Positions 4,626 through 60,572 of a DNA stretch of 64,000 nt are shown here, piece after piece (positions within the stretch are counted from its first letter, which is position 1; each line of letters starts with the position of its first letter). Position numbers and translations under genes: made by a program. The stretch comes from Antedon mediterranea (taxonomy: Eukaryota > Animalia > Echinodermata): positions 30,253,648 to 30,317,647 of the forward strand of contig NC_092673.1 in the NCBI RefSeq assembly GCF_964355755.1, written 5' to 3'. The notes below the pieces were generated by a model. That model was not told where the DNA came from, searched no databases, and saw only the letters and a program-made list of their open reading frames with translations.

Positions 4626-4688
4626 ATGTTAATGTTAATGACAATAACAATGACAAACTGAAGTTGACAATTCGAGGTCAAGGATTAA

Positions 4689-19684: not shown

Positions 19685-20476
19685 ATGGCATACTCTGGCA
19701 GTGGTGAGACAAATTCAGCAGGTTATCCACCAGTTAATCAAAGTCGTGGACGACGTGGAGAAAAAGTGCAAAACATTAATCTTACTCCGGGTGATTTGGA
19801 GATAGTAGCTGAATGCAGGAGGGAAAGTTTTTACTACAGATCACTGCCACTTTCAACATTGGCTGCGATAGGTACTCACCAACTAATAAGAATGGGCTAC
19901 CTAACAACAGGGCGTCTTGGTCAAATACCAAAGATTGGCTTTGCTATGTTAACCGGGTATTTAGTTGGCAAAATATCGTACGTTAATGAGTGCAAGAAAA
20001 AATTTATGAGGCTTGAAAATTCCGAGGTTGGAGAAATGTTAAGGAAGGGAAAAAATATTGGGCCCGGGACATTTGCTGGTGTACCAAATATTGCAATGGA
20101 AACCGAAGAATATGATGAACGTGAAAGTGAAAGGAACGCGATACGTAGCAGTGACCCACATGTTAATCTTGATATCGACACGAGTACATTACCATCACTG
20201 GATGATAAAATGGACAGACCAGAAACACTTTACCAATTTGATAATGATTTAAACGAAAGTCAAGCAGCTAAACCAATGACCACGTATGAAGAATTACGAA
20301 AAAGGAATCGTGATCAATCTAATCGCAACACGATGCAGAATAATTTTGATAATAAGCAACTTGTAGCATCTGATAGGAGTGGTTCGAAACCGCGTTCTAA
20401 ACATTTTGAAGATACCGGTTTCTCAAAATCTGTGAAGACTAAAGTCAATACTTATGGTGACTCTTGGGACGAATAA
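19685..20476 (+). CDS. OCIAD1: OCIA domain-containing protein (OCIAD1/Asrij-like), single coding exon
   Basis: 263-aa ORF. The OCIA domain reads ECRRESFYYRSLPL...GYLVGKISYVNECKKKFMRLENS, followed by TYEELR and a C-terminal KVNTYGDSWDE typical of OCIAD1. A splice acceptor (ttttgtag) just before the ATG implies a 5'UTR intron. Confidence 0.93.
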   Translation: MAYSGSGETNSAGYPPVNQSRGRRGEKVQNINLTPGDLEIVAECRRESFYYRSLPLSTLAAIGTHQLIRMGYLTTGRLGQIPKIGFAMLTGYLVGKISYVNECKKKFMRLENSEVGEMLRKGKNIGPGTFAGVPNIAMETEEYDERESERNAIRSSDPHVNLDIDTSTLPSLDDKMDRPETLYQFDNDLNESQAAKPMTTYEELRKRNRDQSNRNTMQNNFDNKQLVASDRSGSKPRSKHFEDTGFSKSVKTKVNTYGDSWDE

Positions 20477-26200: not shown

Positions 26201-26423
26201 GGATGTCTAGAAAACTAAGATCTAGAAAACTAAGACCTAAAGATATCTTAGTTTTCTAGCTAGAAAACTAAGATATCTTAGGTCTTAGTTTTCTAGACTA
26301 GAAAACTAAGATATCTTAGGTCTTAGTTTTCTAGACTAGAAAACTAAGATATCTTAGGTCTTACTTTTCTACACTAGAAAACTAAGGTCTTAGTTTTCTA
26401 GATCTTCGTTTTCTAGACACACC
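26201..26423. mobile_element. Foldback-like MITE in the TRAF 3'UTR
   Basis: Built from ctagaaaactaaga / tcttagttttctag units in both orientations; TSD aaaacatt at 26193-26200 and 26424-26431. Confidence 0.85.
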
Positions 26424-26432
26424 AAAACATTT

Positions 26433-29400
26433 CTATTGCTGCTTTAACTCAACACTCACTCTAATAAACATAGTGTCTTCTTTTATGTAAGCATTTCTGC
26501 TCTTCTCTACTTCATTTGGTGTAATAAACAGTGGGCATCCTGTCGGGATATTACGTTCAGATTTCGGTCTCTGGAACGACGTACTGTTTGGTTCTGGTTT
26601 GAAACCATCCATGATGTGCTCGAAGTTATTCTGGTCGATTAACATGAACTTAACAATGTGTTTGAAAGGCCACGGCAGAGTAGCGTCATACTTACCACGC
26701 AACAACATAAAGAAAATGGAGAAGTGCGAGCCTTTGCCGACTCCATCACCATTCAGAAACAAGCGGCAGCACATCTTATAACCGTGTGGACCAGAGTAGA
26801 ACACTGGTGAGTAAATAGATGACCCCTGCTGTATTGCTTCTCTTCTCTTTTTTCCATAATCAGAAATTTTCCAGATTATGATTCCATTATGGGTGGCGTT
26901 TTCATTCTCAGTTATCTTCTCCTGCATTTCCAAAATGGTGTTTTGCAAAACAGCTAACTGCGTTGGTAACGATGTCATGCTGCTCTTAAATTCTTCTAAA
27001 ACTTTCAACCTTTCATTAATCTTATTAATTTGTTTTCCAATCTCTTCTGATTGGTCACTAAGTACCTGCATAGCATCCTGGTATGTTTTTCCATTTCTGT
27101 CCAAGATCCGCAAATCTTTCTCTAATTTCTTGATCTGTCTTCCTTGCTTGGTTACCATATCTTTGAGACTAATATCCTCCTTATCTGCAACTATGGCATC
27201 TACAATCTTTGCAAGCCCTTTTCCAACCTCTTCAACAGTCTCTGTCTTCTTGTCTTTGATCTTAATATTCATGTGACCTACTTCAGTAGCAAGAGATTCT
27301 ACAGGAGTAGCAGTTGCAGTTGCACCTATGTTATCTCCAATCTTTGCAAGTTTATCTGCACCCTCTGAAAACTTGTTTAACTCTTCTTTAACTTTGACAT
27401 TAATATCTTCACCTTCTCCATGACTAGCAGTACTTGCTGCATTTATGCTATCTCCAATCTTTGACGGACTCTCTGCAGCCTTCTCATAATTCGAATCCTC
27501 ACTTACTTGAGGTCGAAAACCACTCTTCAAGTGAACTTCCATGAATTCCTTTACAAGAATGGAAATAAACTGCCGTACTTCAGCAGATTTCAATAGCGTC
27601 GGAGTTGCCAACAGGCTTTCCGATGCAAGCTGCTTCAGCTGTTCGACATCCTCCAATTCAGAACTTGTTGAGGCACCTGCTTGTTGTTCATCACAAGAGT
27701 CTACAGATTTGCTTTCTGGTTTACCAAACGAAATCTTATCTTGCTGTTTTATTTTTGTATTGAAATCTGATTTGTGGTACACTTTGAAGAAAGGTAGAAA
27801 GGCGCGGCAGAGTAAGGTTAGATGCTCTTGGATGTTATCTTGCAAATGTTTTTCAGCTGTGTACAAACTCAACTAAAAATCAAACGATATTTCTAATTAT
27901 ATTTAGGTGATTATAAACTAAATGCAAGGAACAATAAAAAAATGTATTCTACTTAAGCTTACTGCAGTAATATGTTAAATTATTGAAATTTCTTTTTCAT
28001 ATACAATATTTCTATAAATTAGAGCAAACTGTATTGCAGTAAATGTAATTTCTGCAGTAACTGCAGTAGAATAAGTTTGACATGATTCTTTTAACATTTT
28101 CTACAGAATAAAAGTAATAACCATTAGTGTAGTCCAGCGTCAGTGTACAATGTAATTTCATAATTTACTTACTTTTGTGTTACAACCAAATTGTGCAAAG
28201 ACACAGTTGTTGCTTTGAGAACGGGGGCAGTCTCCGGTTTCATTATCTTGATGAGATGATAACTATAAGAAAAAAACACATGGTATTTTTGTTGTTTAAC
28301 AGTTTCATCAGAGTTACACTTGTTTGTATACAAAATTAAATAATTAATACACACACTGTAAGTTAATAGTAGCATAATTAAAAACTCTGATAGCCAAACT
28401 TTTTCATAGATTTAAATCCTCTATTAGGCACAGTACCAAAGAGTCTATGAATGGATATTTTCAACCTAGAATATTGTTTGTTTTTTTAGTATACTTGCCT
28501 AACCAAATTTCGTATATTGTTTATTTGATTATAACTTACAGTATCTCTGAAGAGCTTCTTCCCACAATACTGACATTCAACTTCTGATTTTGGACATTCT
28601 GTGGTGTTGTGTTTCTAAAAGAAAAAATAAAAATTTGAACAACTTTCTACAATAAATATTATAACAAATTCCACCTGAAGTAAAGTTCAGAATGATTGTC
28701 CTTTATGAAGTAATGTGGACATAAAAATACATCAGGCACTTTAAAAAAAGGACCTTGCTCAACGCAGAAAGCAATGGAAAACCATATGAACTGGATGACA
28801 TATATATGGATTTACAATAACAATTTCTATTTTTTTGAAATTTAAAAGATATACTGTATCTGTTTGGTTAAGCACCTTAAGCATTTTTGGTACTCATTGG
28901 TGCTACATCTCTTTCAAAACGCATTGGAGAGGGATGGAAGTGGTTCATATTCAAATATGGCACTTCTTCATGACACAATAAATATAAATTTAACAATACC
29001 TTAAGAAACTTATATGCAATCGCACCATTACAGCGTTTGCAGTAGAATGGCCGGTATGGACATTCTTTTTCAGTGTGAAATTTGTATGCTGCTGTTTGGA
29101 TGTATTTTCCACAACCAGGATGAGAACACAGTTTGGTTTTGTAACTACAGTTGGCTTCATGGGCCTGAAATAAAAATGTAAAAAAAAAAAAAAATAGTTT
29201 GCTTCGTAGAGCAAAGTGATACATACTGAAACTGGACGTATGGCAGTTACTGTTTCAGATTAATCATTATAATATTTGGATCATAAGATATTAGCTTTTT
29301 TCTGTAATTGTTTCTGTAATGTAATCAATGATGCAAATTTATAAATGTGTATATAATGCATTTTATTTAATGTTTTTACAATCTTGAATTTTACCTACTT

Positions 29401-31563
29401 TTGTATTTTTGAATTTTATGTCTTTTGACGTTTCTTGTATGTATTTTAATGTTTGCGCTGATTGTACATATTGGGCAAATAAAGGCTGTGTGTAACTGTA
29501 AGCAAGCAGCGCATTCATCATAATTATATTATTTGAACATTTTTCATAACCAGATGTGAAAATGTTTACATACTTTTTTTATTACTATGTAAAGTTTTTG
29601 ATATTCATATTTTTATATATACATATTTTAATTGTTTTAACTCTGAGAATTTTTACGTATGTTAGTATTGGAGTGTGTGTTTCTAATATTTATTGGTGCA
29701 TTTCTTCTCTTTATATGTATTGTTTTTATCGTACTTTTTATAATAATCATTATTATGTAAAGTTTTTGATATTAATATTTTTATATATATATATATATAC
29801 ATATTTTAATTGTTTTAACTTCTCCTTTGGAGATCAATAACATTATTCTGATTCTGATTCAGGGGTGGATCCTTTTGAAATTGTGGAGTGCTAATTGGAG
29901 ATGCCCAGGCTGCATATGCCGCACGCACCTCCAGGGCGGCGATCTCATAATTTTATCTTGACTTTAAAAAGGCAAAAGACTACTGCTTGATTTTATTTAC
30001 CTCATAATTTCCAAAAACGCCCTTCCAACTACATCCATTATTGATACATTTAACAGCAATCGTTATAAACTCTCGTTTTAAAACAAAGTCTGGAACAAAC
30101 TGTAGAAATGAAAATGTTATAAAACCAAATACAACATATGAATGAAATTAAAATTAAAACTAGATTATGGTGACTTTGGTCACCATGCTGAATTTGTAAT
30201 ACTGTAGGTTCAAATTACTGGCAATCGTGCATGAACAATTTACATTTTTTCTTTAAAATTAAATATGGTGAAATGAATCAGAAATGAAATGATTAAAGAT
30301 GTATTGTAAAACCTGAAATATTAAGATTAATTAAATCAGATTTGAATAGGTTATTTTGTAGTTTTAATAAAGTATATCCCTTTCATAAAAAAAATAAATA
30401 TAAAATGACAAAATAAATAAATTCAACCCAAAACCCATTGGCTGACAGCCAATTTGACTATATTTTGCTTTAAATTACAGTTTTTCAGGTAAATACATTT
30501 TTTTTTTTTAATTCAATTTTTTTAAAAAGTGGATAACTATTATGTGACATTAAAATGGAATATTTGACAAAAAGAATTAAAACAAATATTTTTTCAGGGG
30601 GACAATACATCTTTAAATAACCTTTAAGGTGAGGTTATGTCTATAAGAGCATGATCATCTTTTCGAGTTGAACTGAATGGAACTAGTGTGTGGAACTAAT
30701 GTTGACACTGGAACTGATTTGATGATGACCAGATGACCAGAATTCAAGCTCAGTGTGAATATAATAAAAAAATTATGTAAATAAAAAGGATAATCACATC
30801 AGCATCAATTGTAGAATCTCCTTCAGAACAACCTTCTTGTAAACATCGAGGACATAAATGAGTCTGAGAACTTCTAAAATAAAAAAAATTTCCCTCAATT
30901 TATAAATGTGTATCTTAATAATATGACATAAAAACATATGCTGCAGTTAATTATTAATTTGTATGTTAGGCTATAGATTAATAATTGATCGCATATTCAC
31001 TGTGAGCAATAGAAATAAATAAAATTTGAAAGAGAACTATAAAAAACATTGAATTAAACTTGCCTACCTGTAAGGGGACCATGTAAAAATTATTCTACTA
31101 CATACAGTAACCTCTGTTTAATATCTAACCAATTCTTGCAATGATATGTAAGTTTAAAAAAAAAATACACTGTTTATTGCCTGCTTGCATTGAATCAAAC
31201 TAAAATATATTACTGCAATAAAAAAATATAGTTACTGCAGTACATGAATTTTGACATGATCCCAATCTGGATGATCCAAGTTTACATACTAGATTGATTA
31301 GCTTACAAGTTTATAAAAAATAAAACACAGAATTAAATAGTTTGTACAAACAAGACCACTACATAATGAAACTGAGACTACTCTCAGAATGTACGGACAA
31401 ACATGGTTTATACTTACTCGATTAATGTTTGAAGGCAATCTTTACAGTATCTGTGTCCACATGAACTTTGAACTGGATCATTAAGTATCAATTCACACTG
31501 AGGGCAAAGGTGTTTTTCGGGATTGATCTTGACAGTTAAAATACCTCGATTAAAGCCTGGCAT
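26433..31563 (-). CDS. TRAF2: TNF receptor-associated factor, TRAF2-like (RING, TRAF zinc fingers, coiled coil, MATH), 696 aa
   Basis: Exons 31418-31563, 30798-30873, 30001-30099, 29000-29164, 28540-28614, 28173-28262 and 26433-27872 give 2091 nt with consistent phases. RING: MPGF...LCPQCELILNDPVQSSCGHRYCKDC. MATH: GIIIWKI...YSPVFYSGPHGYKMCCRLFLNGDG...WPF...FQRP. Exact paralog assignment (TRAF2 vs 3) is uncertain. Confidence 0.85.
30297..30612. mobile_element. Kolobok-like non-autonomous element
   Basis: ttaa-agatgtattgt ... gggacaatacatct-ttaa; same family as 4689-5016. Confidence 0.7.
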
Positions 31564-32259
31564 ATTATTAACATTTGGTCTGTGTCACCTGCTGAATGTC
31601 AAAATACAATCAGTTGTGATGAGTCATGAGTTTGAAAAATTGTATAATTTAAATCAATGTTCCGCAAAAGTTTTTATTTTGCCCAATCACTCAGGTAGAC
31701 CCCACAATTAGGGCTGAGGTAAGAACATCTTATGGGGTATGGACCTCTGGTCCCTGGAAATTTCATACTACAGTAATTTGATATTTGGAGGGTCAAAATT
31801 GCGTTGACCTGACCCACCGACCAATGTCAAGAAAAAAGTCAGTGCAGCCTGGAGGTTCCCTTTAACGCACATAACACATGTCACTGTATCACATATGGTT
31901 CACACAAGATTTTACATTACATTGCGATCACTAGTCTGACACACAATAAAAGGCACTTTGACATTTGTGTATCAACGTTTGAGTAGGATAATTAGTTATT
32001 GACAATTAACAAATTTAGCGATTTGTCCCAAATACTGTAGGGGTGTTTTCTGATTGTGGTATACACTGTCTAATGGATGCCCATCTTGAAAAATACCCGC
32101 ATACGAGGATGCTTCGCATTTACCTATCTCTTACTACGATAATTGTTTTTTTTTAACATCTTTAAAATAGGCAGTTACAAGGCTAAAACATCTGCCGTCC
32201 TTCAAAAAAGACTAGATAGAGTGACAGCTCAATCCATTAATTGACTGCAGTCGAGCTCA

Positions 32260-35774: not shown

Positions 35775-36082
35775 GTCGAGCTCAATATAATATAATTTAT
35801 ATAATAGAATATAGGGCGACTAAATTCAGATTAAAACAAGAAATATTTCTTACAAAAAACACAGCTCGCTTGTTGATGTAACAGTTTTAAAGATATGTAG
35901 TCCCCCTAACAAAATTTTTTTTTTACATTTTTTTTTTAATGTGTCATTTTAATATCACATATAATAATATTTATTCACTTTAACCAACAACTGGATTTAT
36001 TGCTAAGGGATCATGTCATCAAGGCTAGACTAAGTCAACAAGTGATAAATGGCCAGTACCAAAAGGTGCTATAAAGGAGGGA

Positions 36083-36993
36083 TGTCAGACCAAAATCAGT
36101 CCGGGCCAAAATCGGTCCGGCGGACCAGTTTTGGCTGCCAAAATCAGTCCGGTGGACCATTTATGGCTGCCAAAACCTGTCCGGCCGGACCAATTTTGGC
36201 CGCCAAAACTGGTCCGGCCTGGATAAAATTGGTCCGGGCAGTAGGACTGTTTTTGGCTGCCAAATATGGTCCGGTCTTACAAATATATAGTTCGCAAAAT
36301 GAGTCATAATGTATATATCATTAAAAAAAGGCCATGATTAGTCATTATATTGAAAACTACGGGTTTTATTTGTTTTTTTAATATTATAAATTAAGCCTGT
36401 TTTTTTTATTATCATTATTAGTAGTAACTCATCAATAATTAGTACTAATTGTTAGGCTTTTTGTATACAATATGTATCTCTGCCTGTTTTTAATCCATTT
36501 TGGTCTTTTTTAACATCTTCGTTTCCCCATGATGTTAAAAACAATTTAATTTATTAATTATTTATGGTTAATCAATCAATATATCAATTCAATACAATTA
36601 TTATAAAACAATTATCCAATATTGATTAGGCTGAGGAAGGAAAAAGGCCTCAATCATAAATAAAATCTAGCTGGCAATATCAGCGTCTCATACCCGTTCA
36701 TGTGAGTGTGTGGCAGGCCGAAATATGAGTGAACACCTAAGTCATGTTTTTAGATAAAATACATTTATTTATAGTATTTATCCGACAAGATAACTTACTA
36801 ATATATATCATGGGATATTTTTCTAGCTATAAACAACTTAAAACAGCATCATAGGCCTAGTAATTCAATTAAAATCGACAGAAGAAAAGCTCGGACCGAT
36901 TTTGGCAGTGGCGGACTGCTTTTGGCCACAATTTTAGAGCCAAAACTGGTCCGGCCGGACCGATTTTGGCCCCGGACCATATTTATCGTGACA
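36083..36993. mobile_element. Non-autonomous TIR element with TGTCA...TGACA ends (Ginger2-like)
   Basis: Subterminal ccaaaa-ggtccgg-ggacc-ttttgg repeats at both ends; 4-bp TSD GGGA at 36079-36082 and 36994-36997. Confidence 0.7.
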
Positions 36994-37159
36994 GGGACAT
37001 TCAAGTGTGAACAAATTGTATCCTATAATACAAACAAAAACTTTACTATGGACTGTTTTGATCGTAATTCAATGACAGCAAATTTTTATAATATCAGCCT
37101 AGATTGACAGTCAAATGGAAGTCATTGTAAATACCTGCCTATTATACCAAAATAAAGTA

Positions 37160-37548
37160 CGAAGTGGTTAGGATTCCGGCAGAATGAACGCATTTTATTG
37201 GTCAATTGAAAATTGCTCATGCATGCACATTTTTATAACATCATGTACACAGTTCAACACCAATTTTTCCGACTGGTTGGATGGCTTAGTGGCGTGGTAC
37301 TGCGGCTAGGGGTTTAGAGGTTTTGCTGGTCATTGTAGGTTCAATTCTCGATCAATTTTTAAATTTTTTTTTTAATTCAAAAAATTGTATTTTATTGACC
37401 ATCGTCTTTATTCATCATCATCTTTACCCACCATTGCCTAGAGGGATGTTTTTTTTTAGTTTTAGGTTTTAGTTCTCAGTGGAAAGTTTCTGTCGGAATC
37501 TGTTACAATGGGCAGTTGAGTTCCGGTGCCGGAATCCTAACCACGGCG
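37160..37548. mobile_element. MULE-like MITE
   Basis: TIR gtggttaggattccggca / tgccggaatcctaaccac; 9-bp TSD aataaagta at 37151-37159 and 37549-37557. Confidence 0.85.
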
Positions 37549-38611
37549 AATAAAGTATGGTTTATTATTATAATACCTGCCTAGGTTGACAGGCAAGAAC
37601 AAAGTCATTATTTATTTATTGAACAAGATTTTACAGATTACTGTCTACATGCATCTATATAATCCAGATGTGCTTTGGGGTTTGTAATTTTAGCATGACC
37701 TGTCCTAGTTTACAAATTCCCAAAAACGTCAGTCTCTAGTACTATAACTGCTGCTTGCTTTCAGCTTCTAAATGAGTCATCCTCTTGGGACGTACCTGGC
37801 TAAAGCAGCAGCAGCGTGAAAAAACACTTAATGGCAGCCAACAACGACGTGCCAAGCTGAACGGGAGCTGAACATCCTACTAATATTAGGCTAGGCCTGG
37901 CCTAGGCCTAGACTACAATCATTATAGACCTGCCCTACAATATTTAGGCCTAGGCCTAGGTAGAGTTTAGAGAGCCTACTAGGCCCTAGGCCTAGCCTAG
38001 ATCCTTCTCTGGAGGCTAGCCTAGAAACTTGACAAAATGACAGGCTAATAATGCTCCTGGGCAGGCTAGGTCTTTCTCTACTCTCTAGCTATGCCTAGCC
38101 TCTGGTTAAACTATGTAGTAGTACTACTACTACTAGGCCTAGGCTAGGCCTAGACTGACTGTATTGTTGTTGTTTTTGAGAATTCAAATAACATCCAATA
38201 AGGTCAAGCTTGTTTGTTGCGTTTTCAAACGATATAATGAATATGCATCGATTCGTATCACATTACACAACGACCCTAGACAGCTAGCTAGGTACCTAGC
38301 TGTATTAACTATTTAATACGCTAGTTCTAAGGCAGAACAACATTTCGCTCTTTTACTGCTAGTATTTCTTAAATTAATAGTACAAACCTTGTAAAAATGG
38401 TATGCAAGTTAACCTAAACGATATTTCTTCTTTTTCGCGCCATTTATAGTGCCCACAAAAGGGTTAGGGTGATATTCTCCCTTTCCGATCCCAAAGGCGG
38501 GAATGTGGTTGTTGTTTTGATCGTCACAGATCACTAATCTAAGTACGTACCTGGACGTACACGCATGACAGGGCATATCATGAATTATTCATTTTTAATA
38601 TTATTTTAGAA

Positions 38612-38931
38612 AGATATATTGTCCCTAATTTTTTTTCTTTCTTTCAATATTTTTGTTGGATGCAATTTTAATATCACGTAATAGTTATTCACTTTGACCA
38701 AGAACTGGATCGAAAAAAAAATGTATTTATCTGAAAAAATGTAATTTAAATAAAAAAATACTGTCAGACAATGGTTTTTGGTTAAAATTAACAGTTTCTT
38801 TTGTCTTTTTATAAATTAATTAATCATTTTTTTTACCGAAGTGAATAACTTTATTAAAACTGCAAAATGGTCTATTTAAAATCTGATTTTATTAATCTAC
38901 ATTTTTCATGTTTTTGGGGGACAATATATCT
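38612..38931. mobile_element. Kolobok-like non-autonomous element
   Basis: agatatattgtccc ... gggacaatatatct; same family as 4689-5016. Confidence 0.7.
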
Positions 38932-39060
38932 TTTAACTGTTTCCCATGAATATTCATCTCCATGGTAATATTATTAATATTTTATAAATCTTAGTTGAAA
39001 TAAAAAATATATAACTACTAGAGGGTGAGCTCACTTCGCTCGCTCCCCCTCTAGGAAATA

Positions 39061-40183
39061 CCCCTTTTACACTATCACTGTAACAGCGGTGTAACCCCGC
39101 AGTTGTTAGTACACCGGGTCGTTAAACGCCGGTGTTGTGGTTTTTATTGACTGGTGTAAATGGGAAAATCCAACCACCCCGGTGTGGTCTCCCCGGGGTG
39201 AAACGAAGCTGAATGTTTTCCGGTGTACCTTCTCCGGTGTAGTCGAATCTACACCGGGGACAAGAAGTGTAAACGGTTTTTGTGGTTCAACACCGAGCTG
39301 TTAAAGGTCATTGACGTGAAAATGTAACATTTTGTCACAGAAATACAATATATTATGCGAACAAAATAGGTTTTTTTGCTTAAAATACACCCTTTTTGCT
39401 TAAAATAATAATTGTACGATATATTGTGCTGTTCGTTATTTTATTATTTATCTATTTATATTTAAAGGCAAAAACAAATTTGTGATTTTTTTTTCTGCTG
39501 AAAATATTGAAATTTTTCGTGTGCATTCTACCTTACCAGAAAGCCTAAAATAATGTAATATTGGTGTAACTCTACCCTGGCCGATTCTATATGTAGGCCT
39601 AATTATTGAAAAAGGGAAAAATATATATAATACTGAAGTCTTTAGGAACTGAAAAAGTAGGCCTACCATATAATAATTTTCCTTCATTGATACATTGTTA
39701 TGCTAATTAACAAATATATTTTTTATTTTAAATACTTACCATACCTACCCTATTTTTACGACGCCAACCTAACAATTTAAGGCCTATTTGTACGTACAGT
39801 CTACAAGGCGGAAATGCAGTCATTTTAAAAATAAAAATAATTGTTAGGCCCTAATTTTTAAAGAATAAATGATAATCTTAATAGCCACAAAGAAAATATA
39901 ACACTGGACTACATTCAAAATTAAATAAATTGTGTGTAAATTCGGATTATTATGTTTTTATATGAGATTTATCGATATGTTCCAGTATTTTAACATAAAC
40001 CATTAGTCAGTTAAGTTCCACGTGTGCGCTTGCAATAGTGATTTGATTGACAGCACCGGGGTGATCGATGTAGTGTAAATGGGCGCAACTCGAGTTCATC
40101 TCGCAGTTTTTTTGGCTAGTGTAAATGGAAATTGCCTCCGAGTTTAACTCGTGTTCCTCTCTCAGTCGATAGTGTAAAAAGGG
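39061..40183. mobile_element. TA-flanked TIR element (superfamily unassigned)
   Basis: TIR cccttttacactatc / gatagtgtaaaaaggg, with repeated gtgtaaa and caccggg motifs near both ends. Confidence 0.7.
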
Positions 40184-40962
40184 TAGGAAAGGTAGACGAT
40201 GGTTCTTGGAATGATAATGACTCGGGTAAAACGGTTTTAGAAGGACGTTCTCCTTGTACGTTTTCTGTCGGTTACCATTATTATGCTTGACATTCGTAAA
40301 ACTAAAGCCTGTTTTCCTGTCGATTATTATTCAAAGTGACTTTTTATTGGGGACGTTTTGGGCGTTTATTCAATATTATTTAATTTAAGCATCTTTTGAA
40401 ACTAACTTCCGCGACAGAGTGGGCCGTTTCGACCCAAGAAGGAAGACGTTTTAGACGGCTTCCAACATGGGCATAGACGTATCCCGGTTCGAACGCGACA
40501 AAGATAGCCCACAGTTATTCCTGCCAGCTTACTCAATAAAACTCGGCTATCGGGATTTCACTCGATTTTAAACAAAAGGTCTTATCGTCAGATCTCCCTA
40601 TGTAATTTTATAATACTATTCCCCACAATATACTCCGATGCTTTATGGCGTATGTTTAATTTTATCTTTATTATTTTCAGTATAATTTTTATTTTGTACC
40701 TTTACACGCGCGGTCCGATTCGAAAGAAACAAAAAACTAAAATGGCTATATAGCCACTAACGGCCAACTTAGTTGAAACCAGGAAGTTGCAAGGTGAACT
40801 CATCGTGAACCCGGAATTACTTGGACCGCGTACAATTGAAATTGAATTGGAAATCTACCAATGAAATCAGAAATTTGGTGTTAAAATCCTTTACTTTATA
40901 ATATCTTCCTAAGATAGAAATATGGAACAATGTCGTAATAGTGGAACTAATGTTATCAAATC

Positions 40963-41258
40963 AGGTGAGTGAGTGGCCGAGCGGTTAAGACAGTGGAACC
41001 GTAATCACGTAGCCATAACATCGGCATGGTTCTGGTGGTAGAACGAGTCTTTTCGGATAAGGACTATAAACCGCAGGTCCAGTTTACACAACTTGCTCGT
41101 GTGCACTTTAAAGAACCTAGTACATCTTTCGAGACGAGTAGGGGGTTACCCCGGTGTATTAGTACATCACAGCCACTGATCACCAACTGGGCCCTCTGGG
41201 AGATCAGTCTTTGACTGAAGAGGTCACACGCGTATAAAGATAAAACAAACAAACAAAC
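40963..41258 (+). mobile_element. tRNA-derived Deu-domain SINE
   Basis: A-box gtggccgagcggttaag; central tcggataaggactataaaccgcaggtcc...cactttaaagaacc...gagtagggggttaccccggtgt resembles the Deu/Nin domain; (aaac)n tail. Confidence 0.75.
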
Positions 41259-41728
41259 GTTTCACGGTACATCTGAGATAGATAAGGTAGGTAACCAAGG
41301 CGGAGATATGTCCCGTAGTTTTTCCATTGTGCTCGATCGCCTATATCAGAATTATCCATAATTTATATAGATTATAGGAACATCTAGCATTGACAATTGA
41401 ATAAATTGGTTGTCAAGTAAAGTTGATCAATGGTTTATGATTATGGTAAGATAAAAAGTTTATCCAATGCCAAAAAAAAAAAAAATTATTTCAAAGCTGA
41501 CTCTAATGACATACATATTCAATTGATTAATTTACAAAGTGAATGACTTGACTAAATAATTTAGAGTATAAAGAAACTGAAATTGAAAATTATTTAATGA
41601 AACATTCCAACTGGACAAATTAAAATTTAAAAAAGAAAGTACTTAAGAAGTAGAAACTAAATAATTATTAGGTTGAGTTGCTACTTGTTTACCATTGCTT
41701 ATAAGTTATATCGCTCAGTTGAGTCATG

Positions 41729-43187
41729 TTAAACCAAGGTTCTTTCAATAATTACAACAGCTTCACAAGCGATTCCTTCTTTTTGCCCTATGAAACCCAA
41801 CTGTTCTGTGGATGTGGCTTTTACGTTAACGTTGCTGATGTCCGTTTCAAGATTCTCTGAAATAACTTTGCAGCATCAATATAAGGTGCCATTTTAGGGG
41901 CTTGCGCCATGATGGACATCAACGTTTCCAATGACATAGCCTTTTGTTTTGAATTTGCCATAGACATCACGTAATAAATCACCACTATCTGCACCTTTCC
42001 ATTGTTTGTCTGTATCTGGAAAATGTCGGCCTAGGTCACCGGCTGCTATCGCATCTAACAAGGCATCACACAGTGCATAGAGTACAACATCCCCATCAGA
42101 ATGAGCAATGATCCCAAAGATCAGTAAACATCTTGGTGTAAACATTGATGAAACGCTAAGCTGGAATATACTCGTGCGAAGGCTCTAAAAGGTTTAGGTA
42201 TGCTCAAACGATGTAGACACATTTTTCAAAATAATATATTATTAAGAAATATTGCAAATTTTATTATTATTTTGTTCTACTCTACTTTCTGCTATTATTA
42301 TATTATTTTGTAACTTTGTAGGTTTACTTGTAATTTGTGTTTTTCATATTTGTATTTTGATGGAATAATTTGTATTGTAATCCACCCTTTTCAGCTTTTG
42401 CTGCTGGTGTGGAAGTTGTTTTAAACCATAATAAATAGATAAATAAAAATTATCCCACATTTAACTTATTGTATTGTAATGTGGGGTAATTGTGGCTCGA
42501 GCTTTATAAAAAGAGTACAAACTGTACAAAATAGAACAGCCCGAATCATAGTTGGCCTATCTTAGGGCACACCAAGTAAAGATGCACTTGAGAGAGTAAT
42601 ATGGCTTACCCTCTCAATTAAAGATAAGTATGAATGTTGCATGTTAATTTATAAAGTTATGACGGGGCGTGTACCTATATATCTATCAAATCTGGTTAAA
42701 CAAAATAATTTCAAATATAACTTTAGACATAATGATACAAACCTCTAGGCCTTTATGTTCCGAAACCGCGCACTGAGTATAAAAAACGTATATTTCTTAT
42801 AGGGGGGTTATAACCTGGAATAAACATAATATTGATATCAACAAGATGCCACAATCTCTGAACGTATTAAAAAAAGAAATTGCAAACATATTTAAACAGG
42901 AAGCCTAATGCTGTATTATTTTATAAATTCTTTCTTTTAATGTTTTTCTATAAATATGTATACACTGTATTATTTGTATACATGCATTACCTATCACGAA
43001 CTTGTTGAAGAACACCTTTATTTTATGGTGAACGAGCTTTATATTTTGTACTATTGTAGGCCTGTTTTATAATTTCGTGAATAAATAAAGGTTCTGATTG
43101 TTCATAAGGAATGGGAACACCACCTAAAATAACTGGCCCTTCTCTGCCGACTCTATGCACATCAAAACCAAGACCAATACGAATCAT
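41729..43187 (-). pseudogene. ispF: Disrupted paralog of ispF
   Basis: The 5' part (43098-43187, [23 protein letters not shown]...) and the 3' part (41729-42115) are split by a LINE. It also has 2-bp and 4-bp frameshift deletions and a His-to-Tyr change at a Zn ligand (VLYAL). Confidence 0.93.
42116..43097 (+). mobile_element. 5'-truncated CR1-group (L2/Crack/Daphne-like) LINE, with a probable nested LINE 3' fragment at ~42260-42448
   Basis: Degenerate ORF2 C-terminal motifs occur in order: [74 protein letters not shown]...WN. An AT-rich 3'UTR ends in gaataaataaag. Confidence 0.88.
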
Positions 43188-43512
43188 TGTTTAACCTTAC
43201 CTCTCAATCTTTTATTTACTGGATAGTAGGCCTACAAGGAAGGTAGGGTTATTTACTTCTTTTAAATATCAAAGATAGTTTGTACTATGAGCTATTTTGT
43301 CATAAGAAGATACCTGGTATATTGGCCAACATCATACACTATCAACAACCTCGATTGGGTGCGGCAACATGGGATTCCCAGAGAATTTGGGAATCCCGAA
43401 AGAAAGAGGGGGTAATTCCAAAAAGTATGGAAGGCCTTCACTGCCTTCTGCAGCGCCTTTTTCTGTTCGGCCCTTTTATCAATTATGATTTTTCCAAGAA
43501 AAAAAAAAGTAC

Positions 43513-44735
43513 AAGCCGAATCTTTAATGACATACATTTATTTAATTTTATTAAGTTACAAAGTGAAGTGACTCCTCAGCCTAAATGTTAGAAAATAATT
43601 TACAGCTTGTAGTAAAAGATATTTCACATCTTTCAATTAACTTATGAGGATTGAAATTTCATAATTCAATACCAATAATCTTAAATATTAATTTCCATTA
43701 CTTTTAATTCACATAAACAACATATTTATGGTAAAATACTTATACAATATTGTTTGATTTTTGTACTACTGTATAATACTGTATATAAATAAACAAGCTA
43801 GATTGTCCACAACTGTTGGCCATATTATAATCAGCATACAGTATATAGTATCTCTTAAAACTCACACTACAAACGGATTGAAACGATGGGATTGGAAGAA
43901 CTGAACTAGCTAAACATTAAACAAACTTCACTATAAATAATTGACATACAATCATTAGTATGTTATAGTACAATATAACCAATAATCTTGATACTAGTAT
44001 TATGTATTTAGTACAGTAGGGTAACACTATGTTTTTTCAACAGGTATACAATTTGATATGTGAAAAACTAAAAAAAAAGAAAAGAAAATATACACTTTTT
44101 TCCCTCCAGAATAAACTTTAAAGGGAAAAATATTGCGAAACTCCTACATAATAGTGAAAACAGAAATAACACATTATATATGAACAATATCTTAAGTTGG
44201 ATAATTCATATTGAAGAAAATAAAAATAATCATGGTTTAAGTTTTCTTAAAATATAGTAAACAGATGAATTTGAAATAATTGTTGACTTCCTCAGGTAGC
44301 GCATAACAAAACTACCTAATTCAGTAACAAACATACAGTACAACACTCCTCCTTTCAGCTGATCTTAAAAAGATGTCCCCTTGATATGTCTATTGTACTT
44401 TAATTGTTCATTTTGACTAATTTTTCTTCTGAAATTGTGTAATTTACTATTTGACCACAATAGGGGACAATAGGCCTATTGCTTAGATGTGTTTAACAAA
44501 TAAATATACTTTTTCTTGTATATTACAACACAAATTTAATTATATATCAGATAGGTAGGCCTACAAACGTTTTCATATTCAATATTTGAATATTCTTTTC
44601 ATTCATTGCCCTACACATATACAACCACAGTATAACGAAACTGAAAATTATTTAATGAAAAATATTTAATGAAAATTTCCAATTGGACAAATTAAAATTT
44701 AAAAAAGAAAGTACTTAAGAAGTAGAAACTAAATA
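43513..44735. repeat. Copy of a ~1.2-kb host block X (other copies: 45877-47095 full, 41494-41663 internally deleted)
   Basis: Collinear near-identity with 45877-47095 from aagccga..taatgacatacatttatt to tagaaactaaata. Confidence 0.9.
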
Positions 44736-44764
44736 ATGCAGTAGCGCCAATAATTATTAGGTTG

Positions 44765-44816
44765 AGTTGCTACTTGTTTACCATTGCTTATAAGTTATAT
44801 CGCTCAGTTGAGCCAT
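44765..44816 (-). pseudogene. truD: Putative decayed N-terminal relic of bacterial truD
   Basis: Starts right after the ispF stop (TAA-C-ATG) and reads MAQLSDITYK[+1]NGKQVAT. This aligns without gaps to the remembered E. coli TruD start MIEFDNLTYLHGKPQGT. truD follows ispF in gammaproteobacterial operons. Confidence 0.55.
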
Positions 44817-44817
44817 G

Positions 44818-45300
44818 TTAAACCAAGGTTCTTTCGATAATTACAACAGCTTCACAAGCGATTCCTTCTTTTCGCCCTATGAAACCCAAATGTTCTGTGG
44901 ATGTGGCTTTTACGTTAACACTGCTGATGTCCGTTTCAAGATTCTCTGAAATAACTTTGCACATAGCATCAATATAAGGTGCCATTTTAGGAGCTTGCGC
45001 CATAATGGTGATATCAACGTTTCCAATGACATAACCTTTCATTTTGACTTTGCCATAGACATCACGTAATAAATCACCGCTATCTGCACCTTTCCATTGT
45101 TCGTCTGTATCTGGAAAATGTCGGCCTAGGTCACCGGCTGCTATCGCACCTAACAAGGCATCACACAGTGCATGGAGTACAACATCCCCATCAGAATGAG
45201 CAATGATCCCTTGTTCATAAGGAATAGGAACACCACCTAAAATAACTGGCCCTTCTCCACCGAATTTATGCACATCAAAACCATGACCAATACGAATCAT
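44818..45300 (-). CDS. ispF: 2-C-methyl-D-erythritol 2,4-cyclodiphosphate synthase (bacterial-type, Vibrionaceae-like), 160 aa, intronless; probable horizontal transfer
   Basis: [11 protein letters not shown]...[19 protein letters not shown]...[11 protein letters not shown]...AQAPKMAPY...[24 protein letters not shown]. The Zn ligands (D8/H10/H42, E. coli numbering), the HSDGD motif and E135 are intact. The ATG context is ACAATG. Confidence 0.96.
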
Positions 45301-45552
45301 TGTTAGTGTGTGTTTCCTTACCTTAATCAACCTATACCCAAAGAATGATATATTATTATATTCTTTGCTATACCTTATCTACAAGAGTAGGCCGCGCCTA
45401 CAAGGAAAAGGGAAGGTAGGTGTGTTGGCTTATTTACTTCTTTTAAATATCAAGCAAGGATAGTTTGACTATTTTGTCATAAAATACCTGTTATAGGCCA
45501 ACAAATCATACACTTATCAACAACTTAACCTCGTTTGGGTGCGGCAGCGATA

Positions 45553-45616
45553 GGGGATTCCCAGAGAATTGCTCGAATTCGGAAAATCATGAGAGAAAAA
45601 AAGAGGGGGTAATTCC
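45553..45616. promoter_or_regulatory. Clustered NF-kB-type sites upstream of ispF
   Basis: GGGGATTCCC (45553-45562) and GGGTAATTCC (45607-45616). The paralog has three such sites at 43370-43419. Confidence 0.55.
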
Positions 45617-45876
45617 AAAAAGTATGGAAGGCCTTCACTGCCTTCTACAGCGCCTTTTTCTGCTCGGCCCTTTTATTACGTACATTCTTGTCCGCAAAAT
45701 TGAAATGTCTGTTGTTGAAAATGTATTTTTTCGCCGAAATGGAATTCGATAAAACGTCTGAAATGACGTGTACAAAGTTCTATGATTGGATCTTTGGCAA
45801 AAATTATTGTTTTACCGTATTCAATTTATTGCAATTTTATAAAAAAAAATGTAAATTATGGTTTAAAAATAAGCAT

Positions 45877-47095
45877 AAGCCGACTCTCTAATGACATACA
45901 TTTATTCAATTTATTAAGTTACAAAGTGAATGACTTGACTAAATGTTAGAAAATAATTTACAGCTTGTTGTAGTAAAAGATATTTCACATCTTTCAATCA
46001 AATAATTTGAGGATTGAAATTTCATAATTCCATACCAATAATCTTAAATATTAATTTCCATTACTTTTAATTCACATAAACAACATATTTATGGTAAAAT
46101 ACTAATACAATATTGTTTGATTTTTGTACTACTGTATAATACTGTATATAAATAAACAAGCTAGATTGTCCACAACTTTTGGCCATATTATAATCAGCAT
46201 ACAGTATATAGTATCTCTTAAAACTATAAAAGGGCACCATTCACGCAGACTACAAACTGATTGAAACGATGGGATTGGAAGAACTGAACTAGCTAAACAT
46301 TCACTATAAATAATTGACAGTATGCATACAATCATTAGTATGTTATAGTACAATAAACCAACAATCTTGATACTACTAGTATTATGTATTTAGTACAATA
46401 GGGTAACACTCTGTATGTCTGTCTTTTCAACGGGTATACAAATTGATATGCGGAAAACTAAAAAGAATGTAAAAACCTTTTTTTTCTCTCCAGAATAACC
46501 TTTAAAGGGCAAAATAATGTGAAACTCACACATAAAGGTTAAAACAGAAATAATACATTATATATTAACAATATTGTAAGTTGGAGGAATCCACTACTGT
46601 AAAAGGTAAATAATAGGTTTTCTTCAAATAGAGTGAACAGATGAATTTTAAATAATTTATGACTTCTTCAGTTACCTACATTAGTAACAGAACATACAAC
46701 AGTAGAACACTCCTCCAAGAGGCAAACTTTGTTTTGTTCTAAAGACTAAAGATGTCATCTTGATAAGTTTTTCTACTGTAATTTGTTTTGACTAATTTTT
46801 CTTCTGAAATTGTGAAATTCACTATTTGACCACAATATTGCTTAGATGTATGACAAATAAATATTACATTCTTTCTTATATTAATACAATACAACTTTAA
46901 AAACTAACATTTTAAATTATATAAGACAAGTAGGTATGTTTTCATCTTCAATATTTGAATATTCTTTCATTCATTGCCCTACACATATACAACCACAGTA
47001 TAAAGAACATTAAATTGGAAATTATTTAATGAAAATGTCCAACTGGACAAACTAAAGTTTAGATAAGAAAGTTGATGAGAAACTAGAAACTAAAT
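45877..47095. repeat. Block X, probable source copy (likely the distal EEIG1 3'UTR, minus-strand AATAAA at 45901-45906)
   Basis: Similar to 43513-44735 and continues into unique sequence toward EEIG1. Confidence 0.75.
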
Positions 47096-50000
47096 ATAAA
47101 AGATATGAAAATAAAATAAAACTATATATGTTGTATATTATTGAAAGCAAAACTAATTAAAGCTAAATTAATTTCCGTCAACATTGATTTTTATTCATCA
47201 TATTCTTCAACAAAATTATATTCATTTTGTTATTTGTTCATATTATTTCAAAATCAAACATTCCAAATGTCATCATAATGTATTTGAATACGGTTTCTGT
47301 TGATAAAATAACATAAACAAAAATATCTATTACCACTAGAAAACTAGCTATTTTTTTTATAAGCTATAAAAAATTATAAAAACTGAAACGGAAGACGTCT
47401 AGCAGAAAAGAACCAACAGAAAATACCACTCAAGATCTATGACTAAAAATGTTATATCAGTAAATCATTAATAATTCCTTTTAGAAAATATTCTTGGTCC
47501 AGAAACGTGAATGGCACATGAAAAACATACAAATTCATATTTGAAGCAAAATAAAATCTCCAATAATTAAATCATAAAACAATATATTTAAAATAAAAAA
47601 TTGTTGTAATAATTTCCACCAATTCAACAATACATATATCTCTTTCTTATCAAAAAAATCAGGTTCTATATAGTTTTTTCATTTCATTTTCATAATTAAA
47701 TGAATTTTCTGTAACATTCACAAATCAATCTATCCAAAGGGTCTCCTCAATATAGAATATACTGTATATAAAACATGGTTCTACGTTGTAGGGGCACTTT
47801 TGTTAAAACAACTGCCAGTAAAAGCAATTTTTCTACAGAATTTTTTAAACAATTTTTGTTCCTGGCCAGCAAGATAACAGTCACAAACTATACATTTAAT
47901 AAATAATATATATTAATAAATCATTATGCAATAGTGGAGGCTTTTTTCTCTCATAACAATCAAAACTTTAAATACCAAATTCAATTTTACTCTATAGCAC
48001 TTTACCCCAATAAGAAGCAACCTGACGAGATTCTGCTTATTGTATGTTGTTCATCTGTTATTTAAAATAAATATAAATGATAACCATGCCATTCTCTATT
48101 TAATATTATAGTTGGCATTATTCAAATGCCAACTATATTTTGATAATTGATGCCATTTTTTTCGTACAACAGTTCTTCATTGGTTCAAATGCACTTGGTG
48201 AAATGTTTCAAACACATTTCAGAACATGCACCAAACTCTTTTAATGTCTCAACACAAAAATTGGAAAAACCAAATGCACCATGGAGGCTTTCAAGTTGGT
48301 TGATCATCAAACATCCAAACATATTCAAGCAAAAATTGAATGAGAGAATGCTATTTTTAATTATTTTTACAGTGATTAACATCCAGGGTGCATCTGAACC
48401 AATGGAAGAACTCTTGTATAGAAAATAATCAGCATCTGGAATACTAACAACTTATTTATTTATTTTAATGTTAATTAGCATTCAATACTAACTAACTTTC
48501 ATATTAATATCAGTCCATGTGTGTAAAGATCCGTTTACGACAAAAAAGTTGATGAAACCTTTAAAAATTATCATTCTGCAAATAAAGTTATTTACACACT
48601 TCCTCTTTTGATTTCGGTTTTCCCTCCACTAAAGCCTCAAAATTAAAATTTATTAGATGTATTTTTAATCAATTTTGCAAAAGATGGTTTTTGAAATTGC
48701 TTAGTTAATGCTTAATCTACTCTAACTTTCCTAAATTCTGAGATTGCTCGAGTTTGCAAACAAAAGTTTGCCAGTGTTAGTTTTTACCAAACTAGTGTAC
48801 TTTGCCAAAGTTTTTCAACTGGTCTACACAAGCAAAAATTTGAAACTTTTCTTGACAAACACAGGATTTTTGCTCAAGTTTGCAAACAAAAGTTTGCCAG
48901 TGTTATAGTTTTACCAAACTTGTTTTCAAAGTTTTTTCCGAGTTCCTTAAAACTACTGTCTCTGAGTAATTGTTTCCACCTGCAGAAACACATTGAAAAC
49001 AACTTGACTAGATTTGATTCGCTGAATTCACAAATCTCAGAAAACTAGTTTGTTAAGTAGATGGATGTCCAAACTGTTGCTAACTAGTTTTCTGCAGTTT
49101 ACCAAAGTTTGATCTGCAAGAAACTTTGCAAACATTTTCTCTAAAGGTTTCTAACTAGTGTAGACTTTTGTATAAAAATAAATTGCGTGACTTGCTTGTT
49201 AACACACAAGTTACCTAAAATTAAAACCAACCCATCCTCATAAATTTTCAGAAGGGGAGGGCAAAGAAAATATTATTCTTTTGGCCTAACTTTCTCCAAA
49301 AACACGGTTTCAATATCTTTATTTGGACCAGATTTTTGCACATCATTTGTACAATAATATTCACTATATCCATGATACACTAATAGATATAATGAGGCCT
49401 ATACTAAAAATGTAGAATTATATACAATATGAATTTAATAAAATCTATATCTTTTCTACATTGTCATTGTAAAATGCATCACAACAAACATTTTTCACGA
49501 TTGAACGATTCACCAAGCACTTGAAATGCATCACAACAAACATTTCTTAATTACAGTCGCTCCAAAATTAACCTGGGTGCTATTTTTGGAGAATTGACTG
49601 CCTATATTTTAATAAATTATTCAAATTATTATAAGCCAATAAAATGTTGGTAGTTAGATACCATTTACCTATTTTGAACAAATTAGTAATATTTGATATC
49701 TACAATGTTTATAACCATTGAGATATTATATGGCCTTACAGATTGCACATTTTACCCAACAATAAACACATAGTATATTAATCGTAATGTTCACATAAAT
49801 GATTAAATATAACAATAATAATTATCACGAAACTGGTTAATTATAATAGTAGTGTATACCATGTAGACAAAAACGGTATAATTAACATTTTATGTGTAAG
49901 TTAGTAGATACTTAGAAATAGTAATACTAAAATAATACTATATTTATTAAGATTTTGTGTATAGATACTGAAAACAGGTAGTTAATTAGATGCAACAAAT

Positions 50001-51919
50001 GTCATTGTACTTTAAAAGAACATTTTTAAGAAACTGTGTCAACATTATTTTACTGCAATTTACTGCAGTAACCATGCTTTGTTCGGCATTAACATGTTTA
50101 TCTAAATATTTGCTTTTTTAAAGATATCACACGCTCTGTTTATTACACTACAGTGACTACTTTATAAACTACATTGAAACAAACTATGTTATTGCAGTAG
50201 CAGTTACTGCAGTAACTTCAGTAGAATAATTTTGACACATTCTAAGAGTATAGAACAACCTATCATTTCTATCCAGGAGTATTTAGATCCATTTTTTACT
50301 TATTTTTACCTAAGGTAGAAAGATAAACACTTGTTACCATTTTTTCCCAGCAATAGTTCATATGTGTTCTGTTCTCATAAGTTAGTATCTTTGGGACTTT
50401 TAAAGAATTTATTGTTGGTTGAACAACTTTGGTTTTTCTTAACTTTTGGTAAGCACACATATAACTTTATGGTAATAAAATAATTATATGAAAAATCCCT
50501 TACCATTTATTTAGTGAGCTTTATATTTAAATCTATGGAGAAAGGGAATTCTTTTATAAACCATTACAGTGTCATGGAAACATACTGTAACAGATTAAAT
50601 ATGGTAAGTCACCAGAAAGATAACCTTTGACATTTGTGTTTAATATCTCAAACCCTTTTTTATTTAATTAGAAATTATAAACTTTGAAAATATTTTTGTA
50701 TTGTTAAAAAATATATCTTCTTAATTTTTTTACAGGTGTGCGCTGCAATAGCTTTTGTAGCTTTGTAAAATGGAAGTTAATGCAAAATAAAAGTACAATT
50801 AAATTGTCTTACAAATAGAAAAAGAATGTGTATTTAAGAAAATTATAAACCATATGCACACACCAATAATAAAGGGTGCTTTTTTCCCCAAACCATGACT
50901 TGCATGTATTTCATACAGGATATTTGCATTGATATTAACTTATGTAAACATTTGAACTATTGATTCAAATAAAGGAATTGATCGTAACGCAAGATAAAGT
51001 CATTTTTGGGTCATTAAACTTGCCTATGATATGGCCTATGGACTAATGCTGTATTTTGATCATAACGTAACGTATTTGTAGATACAGCAGCGAGAACTGG
51101 GTGCATGGTTCTTGTACAATCACTAACACTCAAGTATTTCAACAAATGATTGATCGAGGTATATAACTATACCTGTAGTTAAACATTGTTTTCAATTAAT
51201 AATCAACATTACTATATGCACATCATACAGATGATATAAATAATCATTAATTATACCACAAGATGTACATGATTAAGATTAAAATATTCAATATTATTAA
51301 CCAATTAAAGGACAATATCAAGCCCAAGGTGATGTAGAAATTATATTATATTTGACAAAACTTTTTTTTATTATTATTATGTCCTGGTTGAGACTGATGT
51401 GTAAATGATTTTCATAAACTAAAAACTGTTGAATTTAGTGAATCTACAACATTCATTGATATTGTGAGTTATTGTCAAAAAGAAAAATTATGGTCGATTC
51501 AAAATGTTGATGACATAATTAAAATCAAAGTATTGATCCCGAATCAAAGATACTGTGCGTTTTTCTTTTTACTTTCGTTCATTAGGACATCGGTTAATAT
51601 ATCTTGATTCTAATTGGTATTGCATTGATTTGAAGCACATGGAACTATAAAGGCGTGCTAGGAAACAAAACATACGATTATCAACAATGTTTTGTGGAAA
51701 AAAACTTGATAGGTTGTTCAAAAAATAGACATTCAGAGTGTTATAGATATGTCAAGTCCGAAAATAATCACGAAGCTCGTACATACACATGCATGCTGGG
51801 CTTGAAGTCTGCTATCGGTTGCCATCTGCATTTCTCAAGTATCACCACCTTGTTCGATAGTTATCACAGCCAAATACTATAAATACTGAAAAGGCTGTGA
51901 AATTTATCTTTAGACTGTG

Positions 51920-60572
<8,653 letters not shown>

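Follow-up and report, generated by a model that had tools for sequence, protein, structure and literature searches.

How an intact gene of the MEP pathway came to lie in an animal chromosome, and whether the animal makes use of it, are the questions raised by a short open reading frame (ORF) for IspF in the feather star Antedon mediterranea. In passages of PMC10663253, the MEP route is described as one used by bacteria and plastids. Its absence from animals underlies the choice of IspF as a drug target, and an intact, apparently selected animal IspF therefore needs explaining. The window, that is, the whole stretch of DNA that was analyzed, comprises 64,000 nucleotides (contig NC_092673.1, positions 30,253,648 to 30,317,647 of the forward strand). 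Features of the locus are collected in Table 1, and all positions are those of the window.

Table 1. Features of the ispF locus and its host neighbors, in window coordinates.
Feature	Positions	Strand	Remarks
TRAF-family host gene (RING, zinc finger, and MATH exons)	26433..31584	-	Downstream neighbor
Second truD remnant (from 41727), then U3, an internally deleted third copy of U	41501..41727	-	
ispF pseudogene, tandem copy	41729..43187	-	Two frameshifting deletions, 982-bp insertion, Zn ligand His43 lost
Multicopy host repeat inside pseudogene	42116..43097	+	Depth of 259 to 536 in run X1, versus 52 to 60 for single-copy contigs
U2, direct copy of U1, downstream of ispF	43501..44735	-	Paralogous AATAAA at 43537-43542 and 43547-43552
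Probable decayed remnant of truD 5' end, frameshifted	44762..44816	-	ATG one base past ispF stop
Intact ispF ORF, 160 amino acids, intronless	44818..45300	-	Start position the same as in bacterial IspF
Probable decayed remnant of ispD 3' end (upstream operon neighbor)	45346..45385	-	Moderate support
Host-like spacer, EEIG1 3' region to ispF	45386..45864	-	
U1, segment likely ending the EEIG1 3' UTR	45865..47096	-	AATAAA at 45901-45906 and 45910-45915
EEIG1/FAM102-like host gene (NT-C2 exon and last five exons)	51942..60572	-	Upstream neighbor, same strand as ispF

The preliminary description of the window had claimed a full-length, intronless IspF ORF of 160 amino acids, and this was borne out. 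The frame runs uninterrupted to a TAA stop and matched Pfam YgbB (PF02542) over residues 2 to 155 (E = 2.7e-67; 226.4 bits versus a cutoff of 26.7) and TIGR00151 (ispF) over its full length (223.5 bits versus a curated cutoff of 116.45). Its alignment with the three best solved IspF sequences shown was gap-free, and identity to solved IspF was 62 to 65% for E. coli, Salmonella, and Shewanella and 41% for the Arabidopsis structure. An AlphaFold2 model, for which a 51-sequence alignment served as input, had a pLDDT of 95.8 and superimposed on solved IspF structures 1gx1, 1t0a, and 3ghz with TM scores of 0.96 to 0.98 and rmsd values of 0.6 to 0.8; because the model was built on a family alignment, this agreement in fold is expected from sequence likeness. 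The exact protein was absent from a collection of 15 billion proteins, though the protein of the neighbor gene was present there, and no animal name was found among the best 120 matches of near-equal length or the best 120 longer ones. Thus, the feather star ispF is probably unannotated. No fused animal form of IspF occurred among the best 120 longer proteins.

The placement of ispF between spliced animal genes, also proposed from the sequence, was confirmed. The downstream neighbor has TRAF-type RING (31417-31584) and MATH (26436-27872) exons and a weak zf-TRAF match (E = 0.016). In the upstream neighbor, an NT-C2/EEIG1 exon at 60318-60572 matched with an E value of 2.5e-5 and 24.4 bits, slightly below the cutoff of 25.2, and the last five predicted exons splice into a single open frame, with the EEIG1-type gene ending at 51942. 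Several other features were observed in the window. Immediately downstream of the TRAF gene is a CARD-domain exon (22355-22723, minus strand; E = 1.9e-7), which may be part of a small immune-signaling cluster beside ispF. Exons matching DUF4455 are present at 8960-13584 (minus strand). An OCIA-domain gene at 19685-20476 (plus strand) is a single uninterrupted ORF of 263 codons with a full match to a collection protein and may be a retrocopy or a product of intron loss; the OCIA protein shares 58% identity with its counterpart in the crinoid Anneissia japonica and 40 to 41% with those of sea stars, in keeping with a feather star host. Arrays of simple tandem repeats, together with a long imperfect palindrome directly behind the TRAF stop, were noted at 2775-4723, 7123-8351, and 26204-26419.

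Read depth against the flanks and reads joining ispF to host sequence had been named as checks on integration. The locus was present in five sequencing runs from two samples and two studies (four of the five runs come from one sample, which may be the source of the assembly), and contigs of four runs were placed on the window. The depth of the ORF bin was 74, 350, and 34 in DNA runs X1, X4, and X2, respectively, and that of the listed host contigs at 46.5 to 54.5 kb was 52 to 60, 265 to 303, and 12 to 23, so that depth over ispF was host-like in three DNA runs. At the upstream junction, X1 record 3 (45229-45573, no differences) spans the ORF start with 72 letters of ORF and 273 of upstream flank, and X5 record 27 (45080-45448), from the second sample and study, joins 221 letters of ORF to 148 of flank with 1 other letter and 6 gap letters at unlisted positions. 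The upstream junction is thus bridged in two samples, but none of the listed contigs bridges the 3' junction or spans the whole locus. Contamination is hard to square with a locus in which a host repeat lies inside a frameshifted copy of the gene. We regard true nuclear integration of ispF as nearly certain.

That repeat belongs to a second copy of ispF, correctly described beforehand as a decayed duplicate. The insert follows codon 30 and splits the copy into pieces at 41729-42115 and 43098-43187; the two frameshifting deletions remove 2 and 4 bases. The frames of the inserted repeat appear similar to a LINE reverse transcriptase in its C-terminal tail; Pfam gave no match in support of a LINE identity. 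Elsewhere around the locus, very high-copy short repeats were seen at 40965-41260 and 52521-52595 (summed bin depth of >150,000 in DNA runs; no Rfam match), and GC-rich inverted repeats at 36099-36216 and 36931-36977, about 880 bases apart, presumably resemble the ends of a small DNA transposon. The region from 36000 to 54500 had no Rfam matches.

Read along the minus strand, the locus consists of EEIG1, U1, a spacer, ispF, U2, a spacer, the pseudogene, and U3, with the TRAF gene following 10 kb further on. The U segment measures 1.2 kb and contains two AATAAA signals. The U ends adjoining the two ispF copies differ by 6% from each other and by 16 to 18% from U1, and U2 is a mosaic with respect to U1, with a divergence of 1 to 2% over 46020-46346 and 7 to 18% elsewhere. 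Given these divergences and this mosaicism, the arrangement would fit an older host duplication around ispF that was followed by unequal crossing-over, yielding the second copy. The little-diverged patch itself, which corresponds to about 43655-43970 in U2, suggests recent gene conversion or a crossover point. A joint from 46324 to 43945 in the DNA runs was considered as a rearrangement and rejected, as it is best read as the near-identical U1/U2 patch. Contigs of the duplicated region had about half depth (33 to 35 in X1), and so the second haplotype may differ there.

The donor was sought among bacterial relatives, for which a Vibrio/Aliivibrio-like origin had been suggested. All named matches among the best 120 proteins, and all 80 of the best genome loci, were from the Vibrionaceae. 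The top identities were to Grimontia and Enterovibrio (80 to 83%; Grimontia hollisae IspF, 82% across 157 residues), and among 151 genomes drawn from across the order, the top seven had 75 to 82% identity and the remainder ≤71%. No closer donor was found in metagenomes, with a best identity of 81% among the 80 loci kept. Two loci, L050 (bad start) and L081 (duplicate of L001), were left out, and for a 43-row tree, 30 Vibrionaceae were taken from 79 and 12 outgroup loci from 23. In this tree, ispF grouped with the 30 Vibrionaceae versus 12 other members of the order (support, 94/92), on a terminal branch of 0.29 versus a median of 0.046; nested and sister placements relative to the Vibrionaceae were not separated (AU P = 0.32). 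The suggested origin is therefore supported for the family, but not for the genera. A placement with Photobacterium, Enterovibrio, and Grimontia in a quick 109-row tree (SH-aLRT, 96) was set aside because the careful tree did not repeat it. The dN to the nearest bacteria was 0.10 and dS was saturated (at least 1.55; finite for 30 of 79), indicating that the direct donor is unsampled or old. The GC3 of ispF was 0.29, versus 0.30 and 0.39 for two host genes and 0.24 to 0.61 for 79 Vibrionaceae, and GC3 was therefore dropped as a sign of amelioration.

In Vibrionaceae relatives, ispF is located between ispD and truD, and probable scraps of both neighbors flank the feather star gene. The ispD scrap, about 45 to 85 bases upstream of the start, reached a DNA local score of 36 against Vibrionaceae upstream regions, a score also attained in 3 of 900 segments drawn at random from the window and in 1 of 300 shuffled sequences; at the protein level it ranked only 60th of 127,930 positions. 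With a TruD N-terminal profile allowing one codon gap and one frameshift, the truD site and its twin behind the pseudogene ranked second and first of 2,750 ATG sites in the window, in a test that was chosen after the sequence had been seen and was applied alike to all sites. An ungapped anchored test placed the site in midpack (1,029 of the 2,750 sites were as high), nhmmer gave no match there and a chance match at 31729 (E = 0.002), and the DNA test of the truD scrap gave 11 of 400. As a separate observation, the 66 bases from the ispF stop, which include the truD-like scrap (44755-44820 and 41666-41731), differ at 1 position between the copies, fewer than in other flanks, which might reflect chance, conversion, or a role in the 3' UTR. 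The ispD-like and truD-like scraps on both sides suggest that a piece of about 0.6 kb of a Vibrionaceae ispD-ispF-truD operon would have been inserted as DNA, of which ispF alone stayed whole. A Vibrionaceae-type donor and a DNA-level transfer of about 0.6 kb are very probable.

Transcription of ispF is likely, though not specific to the intact copy. No run was recorded as RNA; X5 was taken to be RNA from the guess of the tool and from its splicing pattern. X5 record 32, of which 671 of 1,656 letters were placed, ends at 51990, the predicted acceptor of the last EEIG1 exon, and because it leaves the window at that acceptor, X5 fits spliced RNA. X5 depth was 11 to 13 over the ispF ORF (12.9) and similar over the pseudogene body (10.3); the contigs are uninformative on strand, transcript start, and level. 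The spacer upstream of ispF likely contains its promoter and 5' leader: no ATG occurs between 45448 and the start codon, and an A is present at position -3. U2 would provide the 3' end of the mRNA. There is thus a good probability that ispF is transcribed from host sequence and that the transcript ends in the duplicated piece of the EEIG1 3' region. Some features of X5 were treated as hints and not counted as evidence, including the lack of cover at 45449-45807 beyond record 27 and at 43388-43871 and the match of three EEIG1 bins to exon-only arithmetic (25.2/25.2, 20.9/22.6, and 10.6/10.8). The hole in U2 cover may reflect the collapse of reads onto the near-identical U1. A GTAAGG motif ahead of the ATG in both copies was rejected as a splice donor, since X5 record 27 reads through it unspliced; we presume that it may be a former ribosome-binding site. 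Separately, an X5 contig at 46003-46668 had a depth of 212, 4 to 14 times that of the rest of the EEIG1 3' region, 6 kb past the EEIG1 stop, which fits a long 3' UTR ending near 45900.

The decayed sister copy allows selection on the intact one to be judged. The two copies differ by 7 synonymous changes on 109 sites and by 13 changed residues. At columns invariant in 80 of 80 Vibrionaceae, the pseudogene had 7 changes, including that of Zn ligand His43, and the intact copy 0 (P = 0.016). When all polarized changes were counted, the contrast was 9 versus 2 (P = 0.065), or 9 versus 4 if two ambiguous changes were given to the intact copy (P = 0.27). Of the 15 residues in the intact protein that are novel with respect to 193 close homologues, 14 were found two or more times in 150 distant IspFs, compared with 37% expected for random changes (P = 8e-6); of the 9 pseudogene changes, 4 were absent from a set of about 150 distant IspFs. 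No indels were present in the ORF, versus about 7 predicted from the flank rate and 3 in the pseudogene (P = 0.001 to 0.14, depending on rate and rule), a contrast to be read with the caveat that the intact copy was selected for study because it is intact. In the second sample, a single difference is listed within the ORF, at 45259, and it is synonymous. The protein evolves, as judged from its sequence, faster than bacterial IspF: it departs at 10 of 109 Vibrionaceae-invariant columns, versus 0 to 5 departures in 193 bacterial sequences, and its novel residues showed no significant shortfall at invariant columns (10 of 109, versus 8 of 49 variable columns; P = 0.28). Because synonymous sites are saturated, part of the filtering along the long branch may predate the transfer, in an unsampled bacterial donor. 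The pairing of an intact with a decayed copy is suggestive, but taken alone, it would also be expected from the loss of a redundant copy. On balance, purifying selection while in the animal, in a relaxed form, appears likely.

The residues of the active site were compared with those of E. coli IspF, the numbering being that of E. coli plus 1 and the ligand residues being taken from PMC2151065. Family-wide conserved columns were kept at 33 of 35 positions, and the two changes, I58L and T134S, are conservative; the earlier statement that all catalytic motifs are intact is correct apart from these. Zn ligands D9, H11, and H43 are present and invariant in the 51-sequence alignment, and the second-cation ligand E136 (E. 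coli Glu135) is kept. The CDP pocket retained D47, D57, G59, P104, and A132, of which D47, D57, G59, and A132 contact the ribose. E. coli Thr133 of this pocket is called strictly conserved in PMC2151065; the corresponding S134 retains the hydroxyl, and Ser at this position was found in 3 of 146 distant homologues and in none of 215 close ones. In the pockets for the 2-phosphate and methyl group of ME2P, H35, S36, and L77 were kept and L58 is the residue of Mycobacterium smegmatis IspF (E. coli His34, Ser35, Leu76, and Ile57, respectively); F62 is also among the residues matching named IspF ligand positions. The residues of the trimer cavity (H6, F8, F140, R143, E145, and E150) are present, with one change, T141I; the pseudogene altered H6 and R143. 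With the named metal, ribose, 2-phosphate, and cavity residues all present, the protein is predicted to be an active, Zn/Mg-dependent enzyme of the IspF type.

What such an enzyme would act on is less plain. As it carries no signal peptide, targeting sequence, or other extension, it is predicted to be cytosolic, and CDP-ME2P is not expected in the animal cytosol. The claim that the window holds no other MEP gene agreed with a Pfam scan of a subset of its ORFs (10 plus 63), in which dxs, dxr, ispD, ispE, ispG, and ispH were all absent. With no pathway partners seen nearby, a substrate other than the usual one would be needed. Herz et al. reportedly described in 2000 a side activity of IspF in which unphosphorylated CDP-ME is converted to a 3,4-cyclophosphate. 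CDP-ribitol is made in the animal cytosol by ISPD, according to passages of PMC8478517, and a cytosolic IspF would cleave CDP-ribitol or another host CDP-polyol into CMP and a cyclic polyol phosphate. Such cleavage is the single most likely activity that we can put forward, although in itself a doubtful one, and with the 2-phosphate and methyl pockets retained, nothing in the sequence points to CDP-ribitol. The preliminary description had gone further and claimed selection for a new role; the contrast between the copies does point to purifying selection, but the residues for the native substrate are kept and no switch in specificity is visible.

Other explanations of the locus can be weighed against these results. 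Wrong joining of bacterial DNA into the chromosome during assembly would account for a bacterial-type gene without introns, for the half-depth contigs, and for a locus that no listed contig spans. However, an artifact of this kind would have to bridge the same junction in two samples of two studies, at host-like depth, with a host repeat within the pseudogene; the copies also bear frameshifts that are not expected in an essential gene of a living bacterium, and no bacterial sequence with >83% identity was found in three collections. It is therefore extremely improbable. A real insertion with no function, which is read from nearby host sequence, has not yet been disabled, and will decay as the pseudogene did, deserves more attention, and we consider it unlikely. 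The long terminal branch and the 10 departures at invariant columns agree with it, as do the X5 cover of the pseudogene and the lack of pathway partners among the window ORFs scanned, and the chance of escaping 3 disabling events is 0.05 to 0.14 for a copy that was chosen because it was intact. What speaks against it is the distribution of changes: 7 versus 0 at invariant columns, novel residues that distant IspFs tolerate in nearly every case, and pseudogene changes of which nearly half are unseen there. The truD scrap, moreover, is frameshifted in both copies, whereas ispF is whole.

If the gene does function, its product might still perform the native conversion of CDP-ME2P to MEcPP, with substrate from other transferred MEP genes or from an intracellular symbiont. 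In favor of this, none of the pockets that accommodate the native substrate has been lost, and PMC10663253 calls IspF evolutionarily rigid within the MEP pathway. Yet the ispD and truD neighbors of the same insert have decayed, the protein lacks a targeting extension and no ATG lies upstream from 45300 to 45448, and an Antedon symbiont was not found in the review passages searched (PMC8826689); native chemistry thus seems improbable. Alternatively, the protein could be a binder and not a catalyst, its trimer cavity holding FPP, GPP, or IPP from the mevalonate route of the host. These ligands are reported to occupy the central cavity of the E. coli trimer in passages of PMC2151065, and the cavity residues were kept in the intact copy where the pseudogene changed two of them. 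However, a pure binder would have no use for the metal and CDP sites, yet these are as strictly kept as the cavity, and the cavity-lining residue 141 has changed, so that this role is highly improbable. Our preferred reading, to which we incline only slightly as a whole, is that a piece of a Vibrionaceae operon arrived in the feather star lineage, that its ispF is likely transcribed and under purifying selection, and that the product is predicted to be a CMP-releasing enzyme acting on a host CDP-polyol outside isoprenoid synthesis. The proposal that this domesticated MEP enzyme runs IspF chemistry in feather star cells, converting a CDP-linked substrate to a cyclic polyol (di)phosphate, is tentative and somewhat short of an even chance.

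The locus is real and probably domesticated, and it has its own controls of the same age in the decayed sister copy and the decayed neighbor scraps. With these built-in controls, early steps of domestication (borrowing of a host promoter and a duplicated 3' end, followed by relaxed but nonneutral evolution) are directly testable. If IspF chemistry proves true, this would be the first working animal IspF, caught early, with operon scraps and a dead sister copy recording its capture; if the gene turns out to be neutral, the locus nevertheless remains a clear case of bacterial DNA inserted in an echinoderm germ line. A search of the literature outside subscription journals and genome-paper supplements found no account of an animal ispF or of the transfer described here.

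Among known systems, the closest is Vibrionaceae IspF, such as that of Grimontia hollisae, with which the feather star IspF shares its start, fold, and metal, CDP, and ME2P contact residues. In contrast to the Vibrionaceae gene, that of the feather star lies in an animal chromosome without an intact ispD or truD, and its protein has 15 residues, I58L, R75G, T134S, and T141I among them, that few or none of 193 close homologues share. The plastid and apicoplast IspFs of plants, algae, and Apicomplexa are likewise encoded in a eukaryotic nucleus; these enzymes carry targeting peptides and take part in a pathway that is complete in the organelle. ISPD (CRPPA), which we take to be an old animal gene, offers a parallel within animals. 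It too is an MEP-pathway-like CDP enzyme outside isoprenoid synthesis, as far as passages of PMC8478517 describe it, but ISPD makes a CDP-polyol, whereas the feather star IspF is a newcomer specific to its lineage and would use up a CDP-linked substrate. The arthropod cyanide-detoxifying gene (PMC4011162) and echinoderm msp130 (PMC11878542) are likewise intronless bacterial genes that settled among host genes and were later duplicated. Those genes occur across large clades, and roles for them have been proposed or tested, whereas the feather star ispF is known from one species, keeps scraps of its operon, and encodes a mid-pathway enzyme whose substrate is not known in animals. Neither the IspF family nor transfer from bacteria to animals is new; the novelty lies in an echinoderm that has kept a single mid-pathway MEP enzyme and in which signs of how the gene was captured can still be read.
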